This document shows, in pieces, positions 1 to 6,178 of a stretch of DNA of 14,640 bases. Source of the DNA: a virus (Duplodnaviria > Heunggongvirae > Uroviricota > Caudoviricetes); the IMG/VR virus record IMGVR_UViG_2630968342_000015; one strand, written 5' to 3'. The position numbers and the translations under genes are program-made. Below the pieces are notes generated by a model. It worked only from the letters and a program-made list of their open reading frames with translations, did not search any database and was not told the origin of the DNA. Positions within the stretch are counted from its first letter, which is position 1. Each line of letters starts with the position of its first letter.

Positions 1-1218
1 ATGAACAAACTGAGCGATACCTTGCTAAGGAAACTTCATGGTAAGCCAGCGGAGAAAAACACGTTTTATAGTGATGGCGGAAACCTGAGCGTGAAATATT
101 TAACATCAGGGAAATTGACCTGGTATTTCACATACAGGGCCGGAACGGGAAGGGAGACACGACCCGAACGCATTAAGCTGGGAAGTTATCCTGATCTGAG
201 CCTGAAAGCAGCCAGGGAAAAAGCCGCACAGTGTCGCACATGGCTGGCTGAGGGGAAAAATCCACGTCATGAGATGAATTACACCGTACAGGAAGCGTTA
301 AAGCCCGTAACGGTTGGCGATGCGCTCACCTACTGGCTTGAGTATTACGTAAAGGAAAACCGCGTGGATTATATCGCCCTGAAAAGGCGACTTAATAATC
401 ACGTAATACAGCAGATTGGTGCTATGCCGCTGGATAAATGCGAGCTACGGCACTGGCTGGCCTGTTTTGACCAGGTGGCAAAGCGAACGCCTGTTACTGC
501 CGGATTCGTGCTACAGGCGTGCAAACAGGCGCTTAAGTTCTGCCGTAGGCGGCGCTATGCAATCAGCAACGTTCTGGACGATCTGAACGTGGCGGACGTT
601 GGGAAAAAACCGGATATAAGCGAACGTGTCTTAAGTAACAAAGAACTTGGCGAATTATTGCAGGCACTGGACAAAAAAATATTCTCCCCTTACTACGTCG
701 CGTTAATCCGCCTCCTGATTGTCTTCGGAGCCAGAACGGTAGAACTGAGGTTATCGGAGATCGGAGAGTGGGATTTTACGGAAATGCTATGGACCGTTCC
801 GAAGGAGCACAGCAAAACGAAGGTCGCAATATTCCGGCCCATACCGGAAGCGATCCTGCCGTTCGTCACGCAGCTGGTGGAGCAGAACAGGCACACGGGC
901 TTATTGCTGGGGGAAGTGAAACAGGAGGCCAGCGTATCGCAGTATGGAAGATTAGCGCACAGGAGGCTTAATCATCCTCACTGGTCACTGCATGACATCC
1001 GGCGCACCTTTACAACCATGCTGAACGATTTAGGCGTTGATCCGCATGTCGTGGAGCAGCTTACAGGCCACCAGATGCCAGGAATGCAGCGAGTTTATAA
1101 TCATTCCCGTTATCTGGATGCTAAACGCAATGCGCTGGATATGTGGACGGAGCGGTTAGGGATACTGGCGGGAACACATGAAAACGTAACCACGCTACCA
1201 GTAGCCAGAAGAAAATAA
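1..1218 (+). CDS. int: P4-family tyrosine integrase (site-specific recombinase)
   Basis: 405-aa ORF. The N-terminus has the P4-type arm-binding pattern (LSDTLLRKL...FYSDGGNLSVKY...W.FTYR...RIKLGSYPDLSLKAAREKA). The catalytic region has ARTVELR, HDIRRT and a C-terminal tyrosine region (RVYNHSRYLD). Confidence 0.95.
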   Translation: MNKLSDTLLRKLHGKPAEKNTFYSDGGNLSVKYLTSGKLTWYFTYRAGTGRETRPERIKLGSYPDLSLKAAREKAAQCRTWLAEGKNPRHEMNYTVQEALKPVTVGDALTYWLEYYVKENRVDYIALKRRLNNHVIQQIGAMPLDKCELRHWLACFDQVAKRTPVTAGFVLQACKQALKFCRRRRYAISNVLDDLNVADVGKKPDISERVLSNKELGELLQALDKKIFSPYYVALIRLLIVFGARTVELRLSEIGEWDFTEMLWTVPKEHSKTKVAIFRPIPEAILPFVTQLVEQNRHTGLLLGEVKQEASVSQYGRLAHRRLNHPHWSLHDIRRTFTTMLNDLGVDPHVVEQLTGHQMPGMQRVYNHSRYLDAKRNALDMWTERLGILAGTHENVTTLPVARRK

Positions 1219-1440: not shown

Positions 1441-1502
1441 CATGAATTTAAATGATTTTATCCTGATTATTCCTCTTTCTGTAAACCATGCGACCTCAAC
1501 AT

Positions 1503-1531
1503 TTGCCAACTCTGAATCATCCTGACACAAT
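1503..1531 (+). promoter_or_regulatory. Candidate sigma70 promoter for alpA (TTGCCA-17 bp-CACAAT)
   Basis: Hexamers and 17-bp spacing read by eye, about 60 bp upstream of the alpA GTG. No other support. Confidence 0.3.
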
Positions 1532-1592
1532 CAGACACATCCCAACGCAATAGAACACGAAATAACTCTTTAAGAAACGAAAGGGGGCAATA

Positions 1593-1781
1593 GTGTTAAG
1601 CACTGATCGGTTTATACGTGAAAAAGAATGCGAAAAGCTAACAGGCCTTAGCCGCTCATGCCGCTACCGCCTGGAAAAGGCCGGACAATTCCCATCACGT
1701 CGTAAACTTAGCGGTCGTTCCGTTGGCTGGTCTTTATCCGAGGTTCTGGCCTGGAAGGATAGCTGCAAGGCAGTTCATTAA
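1593..1781 (+). CDS. alpA: AlpA-family (MerR-like wHTH) regulator/excisionase
   Basis: 62-aa ORF with a GTG start 5 nt after AAGGGGG. Matches the Phage_AlpA pattern (EKLTGLSRSCRYRLEKAGQFPSRRKLSGRSVGWSLSEVLAW). Sits downstream of int as in P4-like islands and PICIs. Confidence 0.85.
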   Translation: MLSTDRFIREKECEKLTGLSRSCRYRLEKAGQFPSRRKLSGRSVGWSLSEVLAWKDSCKAVH

Positions 1782-1927
1782 TCACGCTGGCGGCACGCAG
1801 CCGCCACACATCAATCATCTGAACACAGAGCTATAACCATGAAGATTGAATATACGCCAGAACGTGGGCGGGGATTCGTTCGCCCTGGTGAAACTGAAAA
1901 ACAACAAAATTGGGGTTTTTCAGGTAT

Positions 1928-1956
1928 AAAAAAAGCGGCCCCGAAATGGAGCCGCC
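1928..1956 (-). terminator. Rho-independent terminator for the leftward Arc-like operon
   Basis: Minus strand: GCGGC..GCCGC stem extended by CC/GG, followed by TTTTTTT (plus-strand A-run 1928-1934). Lies about 95 nt past the stop of the 2051-2224 ORF. Confidence 0.6.
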
Positions 1957-2050
1957 TTTCTGAACAGATAACCCGCTGCGCCGTTTGTGTGTGTGATCCC
2001 AAACATAAGCACGGGGATGATAGCCGCTATCAGGCTGGTGGGCAATGCAA

Positions 2051-2224
2051 TCAGTCTGGTTCAGTTCGTTGCCATACCTGCAATGAGCGCTTTTCCCTGT
2101 ACTCTTTAAGGAATTGCTCAAGGGCAAAAGCACATGGTGCGAATCTTTCTGATTCATGCTCTATCTTTCTGCGCCGTCTTTTCCGTGCCGGTGATAATGT
2201 TTTGGTCAATTCTTTATCGGTCAT
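2051..2224 (-). CDS. Hypothetical small basic protein (57 aa), second gene of the Arc-like operon
   Basis: ORF with AGGA 7 nt upstream of the ATG at 2224; the ATG at 2239 lacks a well-spaced SD. Has an RKRRRRK stretch and a helical C-terminus (FALEQFLKEYREKRSL). No family recognised. Confidence 0.4.
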   Translation of the reverse strand: MTDKELTKTLSPARKRRRRKIEHESERFAPCAFALEQFLKEYREKRSLQVWQRTEPD

Positions 2225-2281
2225 TGTGTTGTCCTGCATAGCAATGCGCCGTAATACCTCACACCACGGCGCTGATAGTTT

Positions 2282-2473
2282 TTATCCTTTGGGTTCTATA
2301 CCGCGCCGCTTTAGTTCAGTACGCCCCAACTCTTTAAGCCAGTTGGCTAGGCTTATGCCGTCGCTCTGTGCTTCTTTATCGAATTGCTCTTTTAGCTCTG
2401 GAGAAATTCGCATTCTGAATTGTGGGGATTGCCCGTCCCCTTTAGGGCTTTTATCGCGTTTGATTGTTGACAA
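2282..2473 (-). CDS. Arc/Mnt-family ribbon-helix-helix DNA-binding repressor
   Basis: 63 aa, TTG start with AGGTGA 4 nt upstream. SPQFRMRISPELKEQFDKEAQSDGISLANWLKELGRTELKRRGI aligns by eye with P22 Arc (PQFNLRWPREVLDLVRKVAEENGRSVNSEIYQRVMESFKKEGRI). Confidence 0.65.
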   Translation of the reverse strand: MSTIKRDKSPKGDGQSPQFRMRISPELKEQFDKEAQSDGISLANWLKELGRTELKRRGIEPKG

Positions 2474-2518
2474 GTGGTCACCTATTGAATTAGCCTTTCT
2501 ATTGTTAGGTGGTCACCT
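2474..2518. promoter_or_regulatory. Two copies of GTGGTCACCT (palindromic GGTNACC core), each preceded by ATTGTT; candidate operators
   Basis: Copies at 2474-2483 and 2509-2518, 35 bp apart, in the gap between the leftward RHH gene and the rightward operon. The first copy overlaps the RHH SD. Confidence 0.5.
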
Positions 2519-2534
2519 TAACACAAGAGCACTT

Positions 2535-2578
2535 AAAAAAGCAAAGCCCCGCAAGTGTCATTACCACTCGCAGGGCTT
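2535..2578 (-). terminator. Strong minus-strand rho-independent terminator
   Basis: Arms 2545-2557 and 2565-2577 with a 7-nt loop. Plus-strand RNA has two C.A/A.C mismatches that become G.U wobbles in minus-strand RNA, giving 13 uninterrupted pairs. Followed on minus by TTGCTTTTTT. Confidence 0.7.
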
Positions 2579-2616
2579 CTAACCAACAACGTAAACTAGG
2601 AGCCGTTATGGTTGCT
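2535..2616 (-). ncRNA. Candidate ~80-nt cis-antisense RNA covering the SD and ATG of the Icd-like gene (predicted, unverified)
   Basis: The terminator above, plus an extended -10-like TGGTATATG on minus (plus coordinates 2623-2631). The transcript would be complementary to AGGAG (2598-2602) and the ATG at 2608. Confidence 0.3.
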
Positions 2617-2805
2617 GTAAATCATATACCACACCTTGTACACACACAAACGGCCTTTGTGTGGCGTTTTCTGGCACTGAGTGCCGGAGAATCTCAAATC
2701 ATCCACGTAACCGCCTGGACGGAACGCGAAGCGCGTAGCCGTTGCCCGTCCGGTTGTGTTGCTGTATTCGCCGCCCGTATTCGTCAGGGGGGGTGCCATG
2801 CCTGA
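2608..2805 (+). CDS. Icd-like small protein (P4-type host cell division inhibitor family), first gene of the rightward operon
   Basis: ATG 5 nt after AGGAG; 65 aa. The pattern FVWRFLALSAG...IIHVTAWTEREARSRC...VAVFAARIRQ resembles Icd-like proteins of P4-like prophages, from memory. The ORF-track start at 2509 is an upstream extension. Confidence 0.5.
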   Translation: MVAVNHIPHLVHTQTAFVWRFLALSAGESQIIHVTAWTEREARSRCPSGCVAVFAARIRQGGCHA

Positions 2806-3118
2806 CATGACCAATTACCAGTACCTGATTAATCCGCATTTTAACTGTGAGCATGATATTGCTAAAAAGGTTTATTCCGCTGCGGATGGGGCTACTGACA
2901 ATATATCAATGGCTGTTGCGTCAATTGGTAGCCTGATGTGGCATGCGTCAGAAAATGAGGACTATGACGAAAAGGCCATGCGCATTGATATGGGTAATAT
3001 TGGTTTGTTACTGGCAATGCTTGGACATTTTGATATTTCGTTACGGTGCACCATTGGAAATGCCACAGATGCATTAAATGCTATAAAGAAAGCGAATACT
3101 GATTCAAATCGGGGATAA
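2798..3118 (+). CDS. Hypothetical protein (106 aa)
   Basis: ATG at 2798 follows a G-rich SD and overlaps the previous stop. Ordinary protein-like composition; no family recognised. Confidence 0.6.
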   Translation: MPDMTNYQYLINPHFNCEHDIAKKVYSAADGATDNISMAVASIGSLMWHASENEDYDEKAMRIDMGNIGLLLAMLGHFDISLRCTIGNATDALNAIKKANTDSNRG

Positions 3119-3124
3119 ATAATC

Positions 3125-3424
3125 ATGAGAACGTATTTATCTGGCTTTACTGCCAGCGGTTATGCACACCCCAAAATTATCCCCGGCGCTATTTATCTGG
3201 ATAAGAACGGTAACAGAGTAACGGTAAAAGAACTGATGTTTGACCGTGTGTATTTTATTCGTGATGGCTATTCATTTCATAGTTCGCTGAACGTGGAGAT
3301 CTTTATTAGCAGATTCCGGCGGGAAATCCCGCTTTCCAGAAATAACCATGTGTCATGTATGGATGTTGATAAAAAACTACAGGAACTGAAAAACATGATT
3401 GCCGCGTGGAGAGAGCAGAAATGA
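3125..3424 (+). CDS. Hypothetical protein, possibly DUF4222-like
   Basis: 99-aa ORF. GAIYLDKNGNRVTVKELMFDRVYFIRDGY resembles small DUF4222 proteins found upstream of primases in enterobacterial islands (recall only). Confidence 0.55.
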   Translation: MRTYLSGFTASGYAHPKIIPGAIYLDKNGNRVTVKELMFDRVYFIRDGYSFHSSLNVEIFISRFRREIPLSRNNHVSCMDVDKKLQELKNMIAAWREQK

Positions 3425-5238
3425 AAAAAGCGCCAAATTTAAAACACCAGCCGCGTGACAAAATGACGGAAGTCATCATTTTTGCGGGTAGTGATGCGTG
3501 GGCACATGCGAAGCAGTGGCAGGAACAGGACGGGCGACTGGCTGGCGATAACGTGCCACCTGTCTGGCTTGGAGAGCAACAACTTGCCGAACTGGACAAC
3601 CTGCAAATCGTACCGGACGGACGCTATCGCGTGCGTCTCTACCAGGCGGGGTTATTGCGTCCGGGGCTTGTTAATACCATCGGGCAGAAACTGGCAGCGG
3701 CAGGTGTCAGGGATGCTGATTATTACCCTGAAGGAATGCACAGCCAGAAACGGGAGAACTGGCGCGAATATCTGGAACGTGAGCGGGGAGAGCTGGCGGA
3801 AAAGAAAAAGGTAGTTGAACTGCCTGTAAAGAAAAAAGAGCGGGTAAAAGACGATAACGCTTCATCACTGGCGCTTAACCAGATGGGAGCAAGTCAACGC
3901 GGCGAAGTTCTCCTGGCACATTATGGCGGTGAACTGGCGATTCATGCTGACTCTGACACTGTTCACTATTACAACGGCGTTGTATGGGAGCCAGTACAGG
4001 ATAAAGAATTACAGCGAGCTATGGCGCAGATTTTCATTGATGCGGAGATCAGCTATTCGCAGAACGCCATTAAATCGGCGGTCGATACCATGAAGTTAAG
4101 TTTGCCTGTAATGGGGAATACAGCCCGTAACCTGATTGGATTCAGTAACGGTGTTTTTGATACCCGGACAGGCGATTTTCGGGAGCATAACAAAAACGAC
4201 TGGTTGTTAATTGCCAGTGAATTACCTTTCAGCCCACCAGCAGAGGGGGAAACGCTGGCAACACATGCGCCGAATTTCTGGAAGTGGTTACGCCGTTCGG
4301 TGGCTGAGAATGACCGCAAGGCGGATCGCGTACTGGCTGCATTATTCATGGTGCTGGCGAACCGGTACGACTGGCAGTTATTCATTGAGGTAACAGGTCC
4401 AGGGGGAAGTGGTAAAAGCGTGATGGCGGAGATTTGCACCATGCTGGCGGGTAAGGCCAACACGGTATCGGCAAGCATGAAGGCGCTGGAAGATGCCAGG
4501 GAACGCGCGTTAGTGGTTGGCTTTTCGCTGATTATCATGCCGGATATGACCCGTTACGCTGGTGATGGCGCAGGAATTAAGGCCATTACAGGCGGTGACA
4601 AGGTGGCAATCGACCCGAAGCATAAAGCCCCCTACTCAACACGCATTCAGGCGGTAGTGTTGGCGGTGAACAATAACGCCATGTCATTCAGTGACCGCAG
4701 CGGGGGGATTTCACGTCGTCGGGTGATATTCAATTTTTCGGAGGTTGTACCGGAAAACGAACGCGACCCCATGCTGGCAGAAAAAATAGAAGGAGAGCTG
4801 GCGGTTGTGATTCGCCACCTGCTTACTCGTTTTTCTGACCAGGACGCAGCTAAACGCCTGCTGTATGAGCAGCAGAAATCAGAAGAAGCTCTGGTGATAA
4901 AACGCGAGGGCGATTCGCTGGTGGACTTCTGCGGCTATCTCATGTCGTCGGTAATGTGTGATGGTCTGTTAGTGGGTAATGCCGAAATTATTCCGTTCAG
5001 TCCGCGCAGGTATCTTTATCACGCCTATCTGGCATATATGAGGGCACACGGATTCGGTAAACCTGTAACACTGACGCGCTTCGGTAAAGATATGCCGGGG
5101 GCAATGGCGGAATATGGCAGGGAGTATATGAAACGGAAAACGAAGCACGGTTTGCGTTCAAACGTGACACTGACGGAGGAATCAGAAGACTGGATGCCAT
5201 CATGTGTATCGGTCACTAATGACGATAGCAAAAATTAA
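3421..5238 (+). CDS. P4-alpha/D5-type primase-helicase (SF3 helicase with a C-terminal origin-binding region)
   Basis: ATG at 3421 (GGAGAG 7 nt upstream) overlaps the previous stop. Walker A GPGGSGKS at 4396-4419 and Walker B-like LIIMPD. Overall resembles the P4-family primase C-terminal domain. An iteron origin lies immediately 3'. Confidence 0.9.
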   Translation: MKKAPNLKHQPRDKMTEVIIFAGSDAWAHAKQWQEQDGRLAGDNVPPVWLGEQQLAELDNLQIVPDGRYRVRLYQAGLLRPGLVNTIGQKLAAAGVRDADYYPEGMHSQKRENWREYLERERGELAEKKKVVELPVKKKERVKDDNASSLALNQMGASQRGEVLLAHYGGELAIHADSDTVHYYNGVVWEPVQDKELQRAMAQIFIDAEISYSQNAIKSAVDTMKLSLPVMGNTARNLIGFSNGVFDTRTGDFREHNKNDWLLIASELPFSPPAEGETLATHAPNFWKWLRRSVAENDRKADRVLAALFMVLANRYDWQLFIEVTGPGGSGKSVMAEICTMLAGKANTVSASMKALEDARERALVVGFSLIIMPDMTRYAGDGAGIKAITGGDKVAIDPKHKAPYSTRIQAVVLAVNNNAMSFSDRSGGISRRRVIFNFSEVVPENERDPMLAEKIEGELAVVIRHLLTRFSDQDAAKRLLYEQQKSEEALVIKREGDSLVDFCGYLMSSVMCDGLLVGNAEIIPFSPRRYLYHAYLAYMRAHGFGKPVTLTRFGKDMPGAMAEYGREYMKRKTKHGLRSNVTLTEESEDWMPSCVSVTNDDSKN

Positions 5239-5250
5239 ACTTATGGAATA

Positions 5251-5475
5251 ACTGTTCACCACTGTTCACCCTGTCATAAATATCTTTTGTATCAGTATGT
5301 TATAGGGTGAACAGTTATTTATGAACTGTTCACCAAACTATTCACTGTTCACCTTTTTGATTGTTTATTGAGCTTCAAGGGTGAACAGTGGTGAATAGTT
5401 GGTGAATAGTTTTTGTGAAACTGTTCACCCCTTAATATTATGAATTAAAAGATAAAATATCAAAAGGTGAACAGG
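5251..5475. repeat. Origin of replication: about 11 copies of the 10-bp iteron ACTGTTCACC in both orientations around AT-rich DNA
   Basis: Plus-oriented copies at 5251, 5261, 5325, 5344 and 5420, with a degenerate one at 5337. Inverted copies (GGTGAACAGT/GGTGAATAGT) at 5306, 5380, 5390, 5401 and 5466. AT-rich stretch at 5430-5465. Confidence 0.8.
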
Positions 5476-5525
5476 TGAAGGGTTAAAACGCAAAAATTTT
5501 AATTTACTGCTGTGAGATAAAGCCT

Positions 5526-5771
5526 ATGACAGCGAAGCACACAAAAAAATCACAATCGCACGCCCTTGATTTGACGGAACACTGGTTAAGGGTGTCGATA
5601 AAAATCATCGACCGCAACGCCGGGGAAGGATATGCGAAAGCACATCCCGAACTGATTAGCTCATTCATGACAACGGCAGCTGCAAACTTTGCCACGCTGA
5701 CAGAACGGGAGATTGCCGAAGCGGAACAGGTGACAACCATCAACGTTAAAACCGGAGAGCAGACAGCATGA
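5526..5771 (+). CDS. Hypothetical protein (81 aa)
   Basis: ORF whose stop overlaps the ssb start (ATGA). No family recognised. Confidence 0.55.
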   Translation: MTAKHTKKSQSHALDLTEHWLRVSIKIIDRNAGEGYAKAHPELISSFMTTAAANFATLTEREIAEAEQVTTINVKTGEQTA

Positions 5772-6178
5772 CAGCACAGATAGCAGCTTACGGGCGGCTG
5801 GTGGACGACCCGCAGGTAAAACAGACCAGTAAGGGCACACCGATGACGCTGGCGCGTATGGCGGTATCGTTGCCATGTAGTCAGGCGCAGGATGGGCAGG
5901 CGACGTTATGGCTATCGGTCATCGCATTTGGTAAGCAGGCCGACTTCCTGGCTAAACATCAAAAAGGCGACGTTGCCAGCGTATCCGGCACGATGCAGGT
6001 CAGCCAGTGGACCGGACAGAACGGGGAAACGCGGCAGGGTTATCAGGTTATTGCAGACAGCGTAATCAGTGCCCGTGCGGCACGTCCTGGCGGGAACAGA
6101 CGCAAAACCACAGGCACACAGGGTAATCAGCCACCAGCGGGAGGCGATGACCCTTACGGTGACGGTATTCCGTTCTGA
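5768..6178 (+). CDS. ssb: Single-stranded DNA-binding protein
   Basis: 136 aa. OB-fold-like N-terminus (YGRLVDDPQVKQTSKGTPMT...ATLWLSVIAFGKQA), Gly/Pro/Gln-rich linker, and the canonical acidic C-terminal tip DDPYGDGIPF. Confidence 0.85.
   Translation: MTAQIAAYGRLVDDPQVKQTSKGTPMTLARMAVSLPCSQAQDGQATLWLSVIAFGKQADFLAKHQKGDVASVSGTMQVSQWTGQNGETRQGYQVIADSVISARAARPGGNRRKTTGTQGNQPPAGGDDPYGDGIPF

Follow-up and report, generated by a model that had tools for sequence, protein, structure and literature searches.

A conserved ribbon-helix-helix protein with twin operators as a candidate repressor of the replication operon in Gram-negative phage satellites

What holds the replication genes of a phage satellite in check while it resides in the chromosome of a Gram-negative host? 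For the phage-inducible chromosomal islands (PICIs) of these bacteria, capsid-forming ones included, AlpA is described as the factor that turns them on, and the founding paper left it unclear whether there is a global repressor (PMC6092414). In the paper on the capsid-forming PICIs the word "repressor" is absent, and a survey of Gram-negative PICIs records Bro-N proteins and C4/isrK-type immunity RNAs in the zone considered here, and no ribbon-helix-helix (RHH) protein (PMC10111431). The question is raised anew by a 14,640-nucleotide stretch of viral DNA (IMG/VR virus record IMGVR_UViG_2630968342_000015), which we analyzed at its full length and refer to as the window. This stretch is a satellite of the type known as capsid-forming PICIs, and its genes are ordered int, alpA, replication genes, and capsid and terminase genes. 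Over the 2 kb that were compared (positions 1500–3500), it is 100% identical to Escherichia coli chromosomes, in which it lies beside tqsA, and its allele is found in 158 of 5426 complete E. coli genomes. The sole leftward genes of the element lie between alpA and a gene for an Icd-like cell-division inhibitor, the first gene of the replication operon. A first-pass annotation, made from the letters alone, had pointed to a 63-residue leftward open reading frame (ORF) diverging from this operon, and it is indeed present at 2282–2473.

We consider it likely that the product of this gene is an RHH protein acting as an autoregulated repressor of the operon that runs from the icd-like gene to the primase gene, and that it does so through twin operators. 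This reading is based largely on comparison of the window with 80 related loci from the Enterobacterales, one per species' reference genome and with the gene set in one orientation, which makes 81 loci with the window. The features on which it turns are the following.

2282–2473, minus strand: gene of the 63-residue RHH protein, with a TTG start codon at 2473–2471 and the stop codon at 2284–2282
2467–2496, plus strand: predicted rightward promoter P_R, with −35 TTGACA at 2467–2472, an 18-nt spacer, and −10 TAGCCT at 2491–2496
2472–2483: candidate proximal operator, AAGTGGTCACCT on the plus strand and AGGTGACCACTT on the minus strand, overlapping the RHH start codon and Shine–Dalgarno (SD) sequence and lying in the P_R spacer
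2507–2518: candidate distal operator, AGGTGGTCACCT, a 12-bp palindrome overlapping the −10 element of P_L, at about +4 to +15 of the rightward transcript
2515–2544, minus strand: predicted promoter P_L of the RHH gene, with an extended −10 element TGTTAAGGT at 2523–2515 and a weak −35 element TTGCTT at 2544–2539

The two sites were originally noticed as a pair of identical 10-mers 35 bp apart. The identity is exact, and the 14.6-kb window contains GTGGTCACCT at two places only, 2474–2483 and 2509–2518. A third match, at 5728, carries one mismatch, and shuffled sequences give a mean of 0.59 matches per whole window when up to one mismatch is allowed. In register, the repeat shared by the two sites is 17 nt long (2467–2483 and 2502–2518), and GTGGTCAC occurs at both 2472–2483 and 2507–2518. 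The symmetric unit had been taken to be a GGTNACC core. We rejected this in favor of a 12-bp palindrome of the form AGGT-N4-ACCT, which fits every class of site described below better, and of which AGGTGGTCACCT at 2507–2518 has five of the six symmetric pairs. The proximal copy adjoins the TTG start codon, and its minus strand supplies the sequence AGGTGA, 4 nt upstream, as the SD sequence, in agreement with the overlap noted earlier. The motif ATTGTT, which was said to precede each copy, does so (2463–2468 and 2501–2506), but it is not part of the site: its first instance is just RHH codons 3–4 read from the other strand, the offsets from the two copies differ (5 and 2 nt), and relatives do not conserve the motif.

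Comparison of the loci provides evidence that the sites belong to the protein. Both the position and the sequence class of the proximal site are kept in the 81 loci. In 69 of them, the window included, the central 8-mer of the proximal site recurs upstream in direct or inverted orientation, with at most one mismatch and at a distance of 31–35 bp (48 bp in two loci). The corresponding frequency in shuffled sequences is 2.8%, which excludes chance as the origin of the twin sites. The sites also keep their dyad symmetry: at least five of the six symmetric pairs are present in 41 of 58 distinct distal sites, compared with 0.5% of background 12-mers, and five of six are found at the proximal site in 32 of 58 loci.

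The outer bases of the palindrome, AGGT...ACCT, are constant, and the cores vary by lineage. This variation has its counterpart in the predicted β-strand of the protein, P17-Q18-F19-R20-M21-R22-I23, in which P17, F19, and R22 are invariant and positions 18 and 20 have entropies of 1.7–2.0 bits. The pair of residues at positions 18 and 20 corresponds one-to-one with the core of the sites: QR goes with GTGACCAC and QK with GTGGCCAC (both of the form GTG(A/G)CCAC), TQ with GTACGTAC, PH with GTGTACAC (in a lineage whose core is GTGTACAC/GTGCACAC), AQ with GTACACAC, and MN, LN, or IS with GTATAGAC/GTATGGAC. Judged from these sequences, there are at least six specificity classes of RHH protein and sites. 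Such an alternation would be expected of a strand that turns residues 18, 20, and 22 towards the major groove, as the Arc repressor of phage P22 does with Q9, N11, and R13. Taken together, the comparisons support the view that both sites behave as cognate operators of the 63-residue protein. One locus has a mixed composition: in L068 (at ~3950–4001), a TQ-class protein is accompanied by a distal site of the GTACGTAC type and a proximal site, GGGTCCATAC, whose usual partner is an MN/IS-class protein. This locus looks like a recombinant between cassettes.

The first-pass annotation had recognized here the layout of an autoregulated repressor controlling a divergent operon. Conserved promoter elements bear this out, as they place one operator in the spacer of P_R and the other on the −10 element of P_L. 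The TTGACA of P_R is found at a fixed position over RHH codons 1–3 in 73 of 78 distinct loci. The codon for Ser2 is TCA in all 73 loci that have a serine there; two other conserved serines are encoded by a mixture of codons (TCT 23, TCA 18, TCC 12, and TCG 6 for one; AGT 44 and AGC 28 for the other). A TAnnnT sequence follows after an 18-nt spacer in 53 of the 78 loci, and in one E. coli PICI (L087) a generic promoter scan returns TTGACA-17-TATTAT, which matches the consensus at 11 of 12 positions, at the place of P_R. The proximal operator occupies the spacer of P_R from the final base of the −35 element onwards. From these elements, transcription would start near 2503 from P_R and near 2508 from P_L, so that the two promoters would face each other and overlap. 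The elements of P_L likewise hold a fixed position on the distal operator: of 67 loci, 57 have TG at −15/−14 and 55 have TAnnnT.

The gene itself is under purifying selection. The product of the ORF (2473–2282, minus strand) is MSTIKRDKSPKGDGQSPQFRMRISPELKEQFDKEAQSDGISLANWLKELGRTELKRRGIEPKG, which is predicted to consist of a basic N-terminal arm (residues 1–16), a β-strand (P17–I23), helix A (25–37), and helix B (42–56). A search of 5.8 billion proteins returned 54 homologues across the Enterobacterales, mostly of 58–68 residues with some longer or shorter gene calls, from Escherichia, Providencia, Xenorhabdus, Erwinia, Proteus, Morganella, Dickeya, Pantoea, Edwardsiella, Serratia, and others. 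The family is nevertheless narrow, with 135 clusters (50% identity) at E 0.001 among 1.84 billion representatives. The N-terminal arm and the C-terminal GIEPKG are kept among the homologues, as are the start codon, stop codon, and length of the gene across genera. Among 34 distinct genes of 63 codons, the diversity per site at codon positions 1, 2, and 3 is 0.28, 0.23, and 0.61; the peak at the third position indicates purifying selection on the ORF in its own frame. On these comparisons, the 63-residue ORF is a real, conserved gene.

Its likeness to P22 Arc, initially noticed by eye, is found again by sequence, by family profile, and by fold. Arc is the best match in the PDB by sequence (E 0.2) and the first match of the family profile (E 0.0049, with residues 11–57 aligned on Arc 2–48), followed by MazE7. 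The profile alignment places PQFRMR over PQFNLR of Arc, and thereby Q18, R20, and R22 over Q9, N11, and R13. Structure prediction, which together with profile comparison had been proposed as a check of the fold, likewise gives an RHH protein. With the family alignment as input, AlphaFold2 returns a model with a mean predicted local distance difference test score (pLDDT) of 80, in which the helices at 25–37 and 42–56 have block pLDDT values of 88–94. In a Foldseek search of the PDB with this model, nearly all of the top 50 matches are RHH proteins; Arc is first, with a template modeling (TM) score of 0.85 and a root-mean-square deviation of 1.6 Å over 42 residues, and the matches include NikA, CopG, AmrZ, ParG, and the antitoxins TacA, AtaR, VapB, and MazE. 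Pfam models of RHH type match 28 of 32 family members (HicB 28, NikA-like 7, RHH_5 3, RHH_1 3, RHH_10 1, and Arc 1). The Pfam Arc model itself (PF03869) gives no match to the window protein at E ≤ 0.1, and matches one of the 32 relatives with E 0.005. The protein thus has the strand–helix–helix topology within ~45 residues that defines the RHH superfamily, profile similarity to its members, and the alternating pattern of invariant and variable strand positions. These models and profiles support its assignment as an RHH protein of the Arc/MetJ/CopG superfamily with Arc as its nearest solved relative, and by analogy we infer that it works like Arc or Mnt, albeit from outside the Arc family of Pfam.

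On this basis, we propose the following mechanism. A dimer of the RHH protein would bind the palindromes at 2507–2518 and 2472–2483, probably with one dimer per site, and would read the DNA through the outward-facing β-strand residues Q18, R20, and R22. The proximal site lies next to the −35 element of P_R, the promoter that would drive the icd-like gene, orf106, the DUF4222 gene, and the primase gene; the distal site lies on the extended −10 element of P_L, just downstream of the predicted start of P_R. Occupancy of the sites would therefore be expected to shut down the replication operon and at the same time to autoregulate the repressor, and either site on its own should be able to block both promoters. 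As P_R and P_L would face each other and overlap, they are probably also mutually exclusive. Finally, an antisense RNA resembling SymR of E. coli K-12 may block translation of the potentially toxic first gene. The role of "master switch" that was suggested for the protein at the outset is what we would infer from such an arrangement.

The genes of the operon and the elements of the putative antisense RNA are as follows.

2608–2805, plus strand: Icd-like cell-division inhibitor of 65 residues, gene 1 of the operon (NCBIfam NF033153, E 5.8e-18)
2798–3118, plus strand: orf106, overlapping or closely spaced after the icd-like gene
3125–3424, plus strand: DUF4222 protein (Pfam, RefSeq annotation)
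3406–5238, plus strand: D5-type (P4 α-like) primase-helicase (Pfam, RefSeq annotation)
2535–2613, minus strand: predicted cis-antisense RNA of ~80 nt, SymR type, its 5' end complementary to the start codon and SD sequence of the icd-like gene; it has an anti-SD CUCC in the 5' domain and a GC-rich 3' hairpin (2579–2543) followed by a U-run
2621–2649, minus strand: predicted promoter of the antisense RNA, with −35 TTGTGT at 2649–2644, a 17-nt spacer, and −10 TATGAT at 2626–2621, giving a start at A2613

The promoter of the antisense RNA falls inside codons 5–14 of the icd-like gene. The block made up of the hairpin, roughly the first twelve codons of gene 1, and the sequence between them is conserved in about 66 related loci even though gene 1 differs between loci, being Icd-like in 15 of 63 loci, SymE in another 15, and other proteins in the rest. 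Conservation of the antisense block over the start of gene 1 therefore accounts for the N-terminus MAxxxSTxT that is common to these unrelated proteins. Read on the strand of the RHH gene, the order is a −10-like TAnnnT, 5–9 nt, A(G/A)CCAT (the reverse complement of the start codon), and a two-domain fold. In 55 of the 73 RNAs, a TAnnnT precedes the A of AGCCAT by 5–9 nt, and most of the 73, when folded, give the two-domain fold. The geometry of symR in E. coli K-12 is alike (TAGAAT, 7 nt, AGTCAT).

Covariation points to a structured RNA as well. A first covariance model (R1), built from 28 sequences, found held-out loci, gave a weak match in the window (16.4 bits, E 0.13), and missed K-12 symR. 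In an alignment of 66 sequences, 96.8% of the cells are paired and 17 of 21 pairs show compensatory changes, values that none of 500 shuffles reached, and slid controls are 36–51% paired; it should be borne in mind that this alignment was fitted to the covariance model, which favors pairing. A second model (R2), built from these 66 sequences, with K-12 and the window left out, matches K-12 symR at its annotated coordinates (L084 2836–2912; 25.1 bits, E 2.4e-4) and the window at 2543–2613 on the minus strand (23.1 bits, E 7.4e-4). With MAFFT alone, the stems of the antisense region were aligned out of register, and RNAalifold returned no structure, so that the model-guided alignment was needed. 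The Rfam model of SymR (RF01809) finds nothing in the window, not even with a 181-nt stretch searched at E 10, and its best match among the tested loci (L025) reaches 30.2 bits against a threshold of 61. We also considered the hairpin at 2543–2579 as part of the leader of the rightward mRNA, and disfavored this because many of its pairs are G–U, which become C–A mismatches on the mRNA strand; the antisense strand is favored for the same reason. From its position over the start codon and SD sequence, its two-domain fold, and its relatedness to K-12 symR, we regard the ~80-nt RNA (2613 to ~2535, minus strand) as SymR-type, and it would mask the SD sequence and start codon of the icd-like gene.

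The resemblance to K-12 SymR is close in several respects. Both are cis-antisense RNAs of ~77–80 nt that start a few nt inside the target gene, cover its start codon and SD sequence, and have the same two-domain fold. They differ in the target, which is SymE in K-12 and the Icd-like gene heading the replication operon in the window, and in the upstream control, for which the window has the RHH operators and K-12 a LexA box (as read from sequence). There is a further parallel in phage P1, whose immI operon comprises the c4 antisense RNA, icd, and ant, and is a determinant of immunity. In both P1 and, as predicted, the window, an Icd-type inhibitor is the first gene of the operon and is kept in check by a small antisense RNA. 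The c4 RNA, however, arises by processing of the operon transcript itself and targets complementary sites in trans, whereas the window would combine a cis-antisense RNA of SymR type with a protein repressor; the Rfam C4 model gives no match in the window.

Three further observations concern these RNA modules. Inside the Icd-like ORF, the plus strand has a terminator-like hairpin at 2643–2673, CACACAAACGGCCTTTGTGTG with GCGTTTTCTG after it, which overlaps the predicted −35 element of the antisense promoter and is conserved in a close relative (L083 2676–2706). One locus (L073 5788–5860) has a second antisense-RNA module ~1.9 kb away from the first and with a higher score (73.8 bits), and may carry two cassettes side by side. 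In Citrobacter, cassettes of the SymE type (L062 4883–4973; L069 4865–4955) lie ~0.7 kb from the tRNA-Sec gene. The tRNA-Sec gene is a classic site of island integration.

The slot between alpA and the first gene of the operon can be followed into other elements. Two further E. coli alleles of the RHH protein, P0036 (TQ class) and P0010 (PH class), share the order int, alpA, optional cargo (for example, Bro-N), and RHH gene. On the divergent side they have a gene 1 of 66–67 residues, small ORFs, DUF4222, a primase or helicase (of the DUF927, D5_N/DUF5906, or AAA_25 type), SSB, and, in most cases, PerC. The layout is present in classical, capsid-forming, and prophage-embedded PICIs of E. coli, and in a 15-kb Pasteurella element deposited as a phage an RHH homologue is again divergent from a primase operon.

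In some elements the slot is filled differently. Both the PICI of CFT073, located between roxA and phoQ, and capsid-forming PICIs of O157 have a protein of the YlcI/YnfO family (DUF3950) in this position, encoded leftward in each case:

L094 (CFT073) 5650–5860, leftward: YlcI/YnfO-type slot
L082 3550–3790, leftward: YlcI/YnfO-type slot
L083 2430–2650, leftward: YlcI/YnfO-type slot

Like the RHH gene, the YlcI/YnfO genes lie between alpA and the icd-like gene, point leftward, and encode products of similar size (59–101 residues). As in the window, these elements have twin repeats of their own, the first inside the spacer of a rightward promoter of TTGAC type and the second just past its −10 element, with the hairpin and icd leader downstream. 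The two copies of GTGGGCCACACCT in CFT073 are placed in the spacer of TTGACG-18-TATAGT and directly after its −10 element. The repeats, GTGGGCCACACCT, TGTGTTTCA, and GTGCGATTCA, differ from those of the window. Comparison of the RHH family with the YlcI/YnfO-type protein by hhalign is not significant (probability 2.7%, E 0.017), and we do not claim homology. By these comparisons of sequence and position, the slot is a swappable repressor–operator cassette, much like an immunity region. Generalizing from this, we put forward, tentatively and as something that may well prove too broad, that the RHH cassettes and the YlcI/YnfO cassette of EcCICFT073 together constitute the master repressor of Gram-negative PICIs, which would keep the replication operon silent by way of twin operators, with at least six specificities that do not cross-react and would allow a single cell to harbor several satellites, a SymR-type RNA as backup, and induction by the helper via AlpA or an anti-repressor.

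Several points weigh against our proposal that the RHH protein represses the replication operon. AlpA is an activator that is both necessary and sufficient for induction of EcCICFT073, and no repressor was invoked to explain this (PMC6092414). In many related loci, the 4 kb downstream contain no primase gene, and therefore the cassette is not restricted to replication operons. In the window, the −10 element of P_R (TAGCCT) and both hexamers of P_L are weak, and the generic scan called neither promoter. The spacing of 33–35 bp between the sites corresponds to a non-integral number of helical turns, so that cooperative looping of the DNA is not obviously favored. In the monomer model from AlphaFold2, the strand at 17–23 is extended but unpaired, as would be expected of a strand that pairs only in the dimer. 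Lastly, protein and sites are adjacent, and co-inheritance could contribute to their association; the concerted change of two sites, the retention of dyad symmetry, and the location of the changes on the DNA-facing residues argue that more than co-inheritance is involved.

It may be asked, then, whether the RHH protein instead regulates a self-contained toxin module, made up of an Icd- or SymE-like toxin and its SymR-like RNA antitoxin, and has no part in the satellite life cycle. The purpose of such a module would be addiction, defence, or stress response, and its position at the head of the operon would be incidental. The frequent occurrence of Icd-like and SymE proteins as gene 1 is in line with this idea, and so are the loci that have no primase nearby. 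Moreover, the RHH gene, operators, and antisense block are kept as a unit and the genes further downstream vary, and in K-12 symR/symE stands alone beside restriction genes, with no annotated RHH gene. On the other hand, every E. coli PICI that we examined has gene 1 running closely into DUF4222 and primase genes. In the window, no consensus promoter was found between gene 1 and the primase gene; as the genes from one to the other overlap or are closely spaced, control of P_R is therefore control of replication as well. The two readings are in any case not mutually exclusive. A search of the PADLOC defence libraries returned nothing for seven small proteins. We regard the toxin module as an unlikely explanation in place of repression of the replication operon, if one that deserves to be kept in mind.

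A second alternative takes the similarity to Arc at face value. In P22, the immI region encodes the repressors Arc and Mnt, with the overlapping promoters Pant and Pmnt. The RHH protein could be a transient brake of the Arc kind, acting after entry or induction, with quiescence resulting from the absence of AlpA. Arc is its nearest structural relative, the palindrome on its own promoter predicts tight autorepression and hence a low steady-state level, and, as mentioned, expression of AlpA alone induces EcCICFT073. The parallels with P22 are indeed considerable: both involve a small RHH repressor (~53–63 residues; in the window, a candidate one) with an N-terminal arm, in which alternate strand residues read the DNA, and both systems have operators inside two closely opposed promoters and negative autoregulation (in the window, as predicted). 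However, Arc itself binds a single operator of ~21 bp as a tetramer, with half-sites one turn apart, and its gene is the first of its operon. The window has two 12-bp palindromes 35 bp apart, and the RHH gene is divergent from the operon, which is the position of Mnt. The target differs too, being the satellite replication operon in the window and the antirepressor gene in P22. In addition, the two sites, of which the proximal one lies inside the P_R spacer, are equally conserved, and the existence of at least six specificities looks like the outcome of immunity-type selection. A mere brake is thus improbable in our judgment.

In position and predicted logic, the RHH gene matches the genes of Stl/Rpr, the master repressors of Gram-positive PICIs (SaPIs). 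Both are transcribed away from the replication operon and lie next to the int side (PMC6092414), an arrangement that the window shares with other E. coli PICIs. The allelic diversity of the RHH protein also fits element-specific control, as with Stl/Rpr. Stl differs in being a larger helix-turn-helix protein with a domain that binds inducers from the helper phage, whereas the RHH protein has 63 residues and no obvious sensor domain; and Gram-negative PICIs, unlike the Stl-controlled SaPIs, additionally need the activator AlpA.

The remaining alternatives concern the identity of the gene. The protein might be a HicB-type antitoxin of a type II toxin–antitoxin pair. Homologues in other genera are named accordingly (HicB family antitoxin, or "toxin-antitoxin system HicB family antitoxin"), and the window protein, along with the 28 members noted above, matches the Pfam HicB model (20.4 bits, E 4.9e-4). 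This score is below the cut-off of 21 bits and comes from residues 17–47 only, the same stretch on which Arc aligns. With 63 residues, the protein is too short to contain the further N-terminal domain of the HicB fold. More decisively, no conserved same-strand partner of the RHH gene was found, upstream or downstream, in any class of locus: more than 25 loci have no downstream ORF of at least 40 residues, others have unrelated ORFs, and no match to HicA or another toxin family was found among the neighbors. For want of a partner gene we rejected this reading, which we hold to be very improbable.

Finally, we give practically no credence to the RefSeq/PGAP annotation, which leaves the RHH gene unannotated in E. 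coli and calls a 247-residue plus-strand ORF across the whole region (1839–2582, WP_001304194.1), so that the RHH ORF and the repeats would be by-products of it: the ORF is called in every E. coli genome that carries the region and the frame antisense to the RHH gene is open across 22 of 34 distinct homologues, but its tblastn similarity does not extend beyond the part opposite the RHH gene, with an identity that in most loci is below that of the RHH protein (60% versus 81% in L002, for example), it traverses the promoter region and hairpin, and the third codon position of the RHH frame is the peak of diversity in a gene whose start, stop, and length are kept across genera. WP_001304194.1 therefore seems to be a shadow ORF, called on the wrong strand, and was rejected on the grounds of codon-position diversity and the limits of its homology.

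The other features of the window bear less directly on the proposed repressor. They include the following.

1–1218, plus strand: tyrosine integrase
1593–1781, plus strand: AlpA
2051–2239, minus strand: possible second leftward gene of 62 residues, 3' of the RHH gene, which may be cargo or a spurious ORF
Further genes of the window, plus strand: SSB, PerC, major capsid protein, prohead protease, portal, head completion protein, connector, HNH, TerS, and TerL

The 62-residue ORF is rich in arginine and contains RKRRRRK. It has no family match, and no tblastn match was found for it in the 80 related loci, where the position 3' of the RHH gene is empty or holds varied cargo (for instance, Pectobacterium has a 128-residue protein there and L089 one of the Bro-N type). 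Just 3' of the primase gene, the AT-rich stretch 5240–5480 contains at least ten copies of GGTGAACAG(T) and its variant GGTGAATAGT, in both orientations, as well as a 56-nt inverted repeat, and is probably a replication origin with iterons. Rfam matches on the window (to the rnk leader and, on the origin repeats, to miRNA models) were at chance level and were set aside.

In the open-access literature, we found no description of the 63-residue RHH protein or of a SymR-like RNA in satellites. The mechanism, an RHH autorepressor on divergent promoters, is a textbook one; the interest lies in the family and its candidate role. For annotation, the consequence is that a shadow ORF stands in the RefSeq records of 158 complete E. 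coli genomes and that the SymR-like RNA is unannotated. The pairing of two strand residues with the operator core amounts to a natural recognition code for RHH proteins, and the coupling of an RHH repressor cassette to an antisense RNA of SymR type is of further interest. Above all, the RHH protein and its operators provide a concrete candidate for the missing repressor of Gram-negative PICIs. Its immunity-like specificity classes may account for the coexistence of as many as six of these elements in a single E. coli genome, and the finding bears both on how helper phages induce these satellites and on the engineering of PICIs as delivery vehicles.

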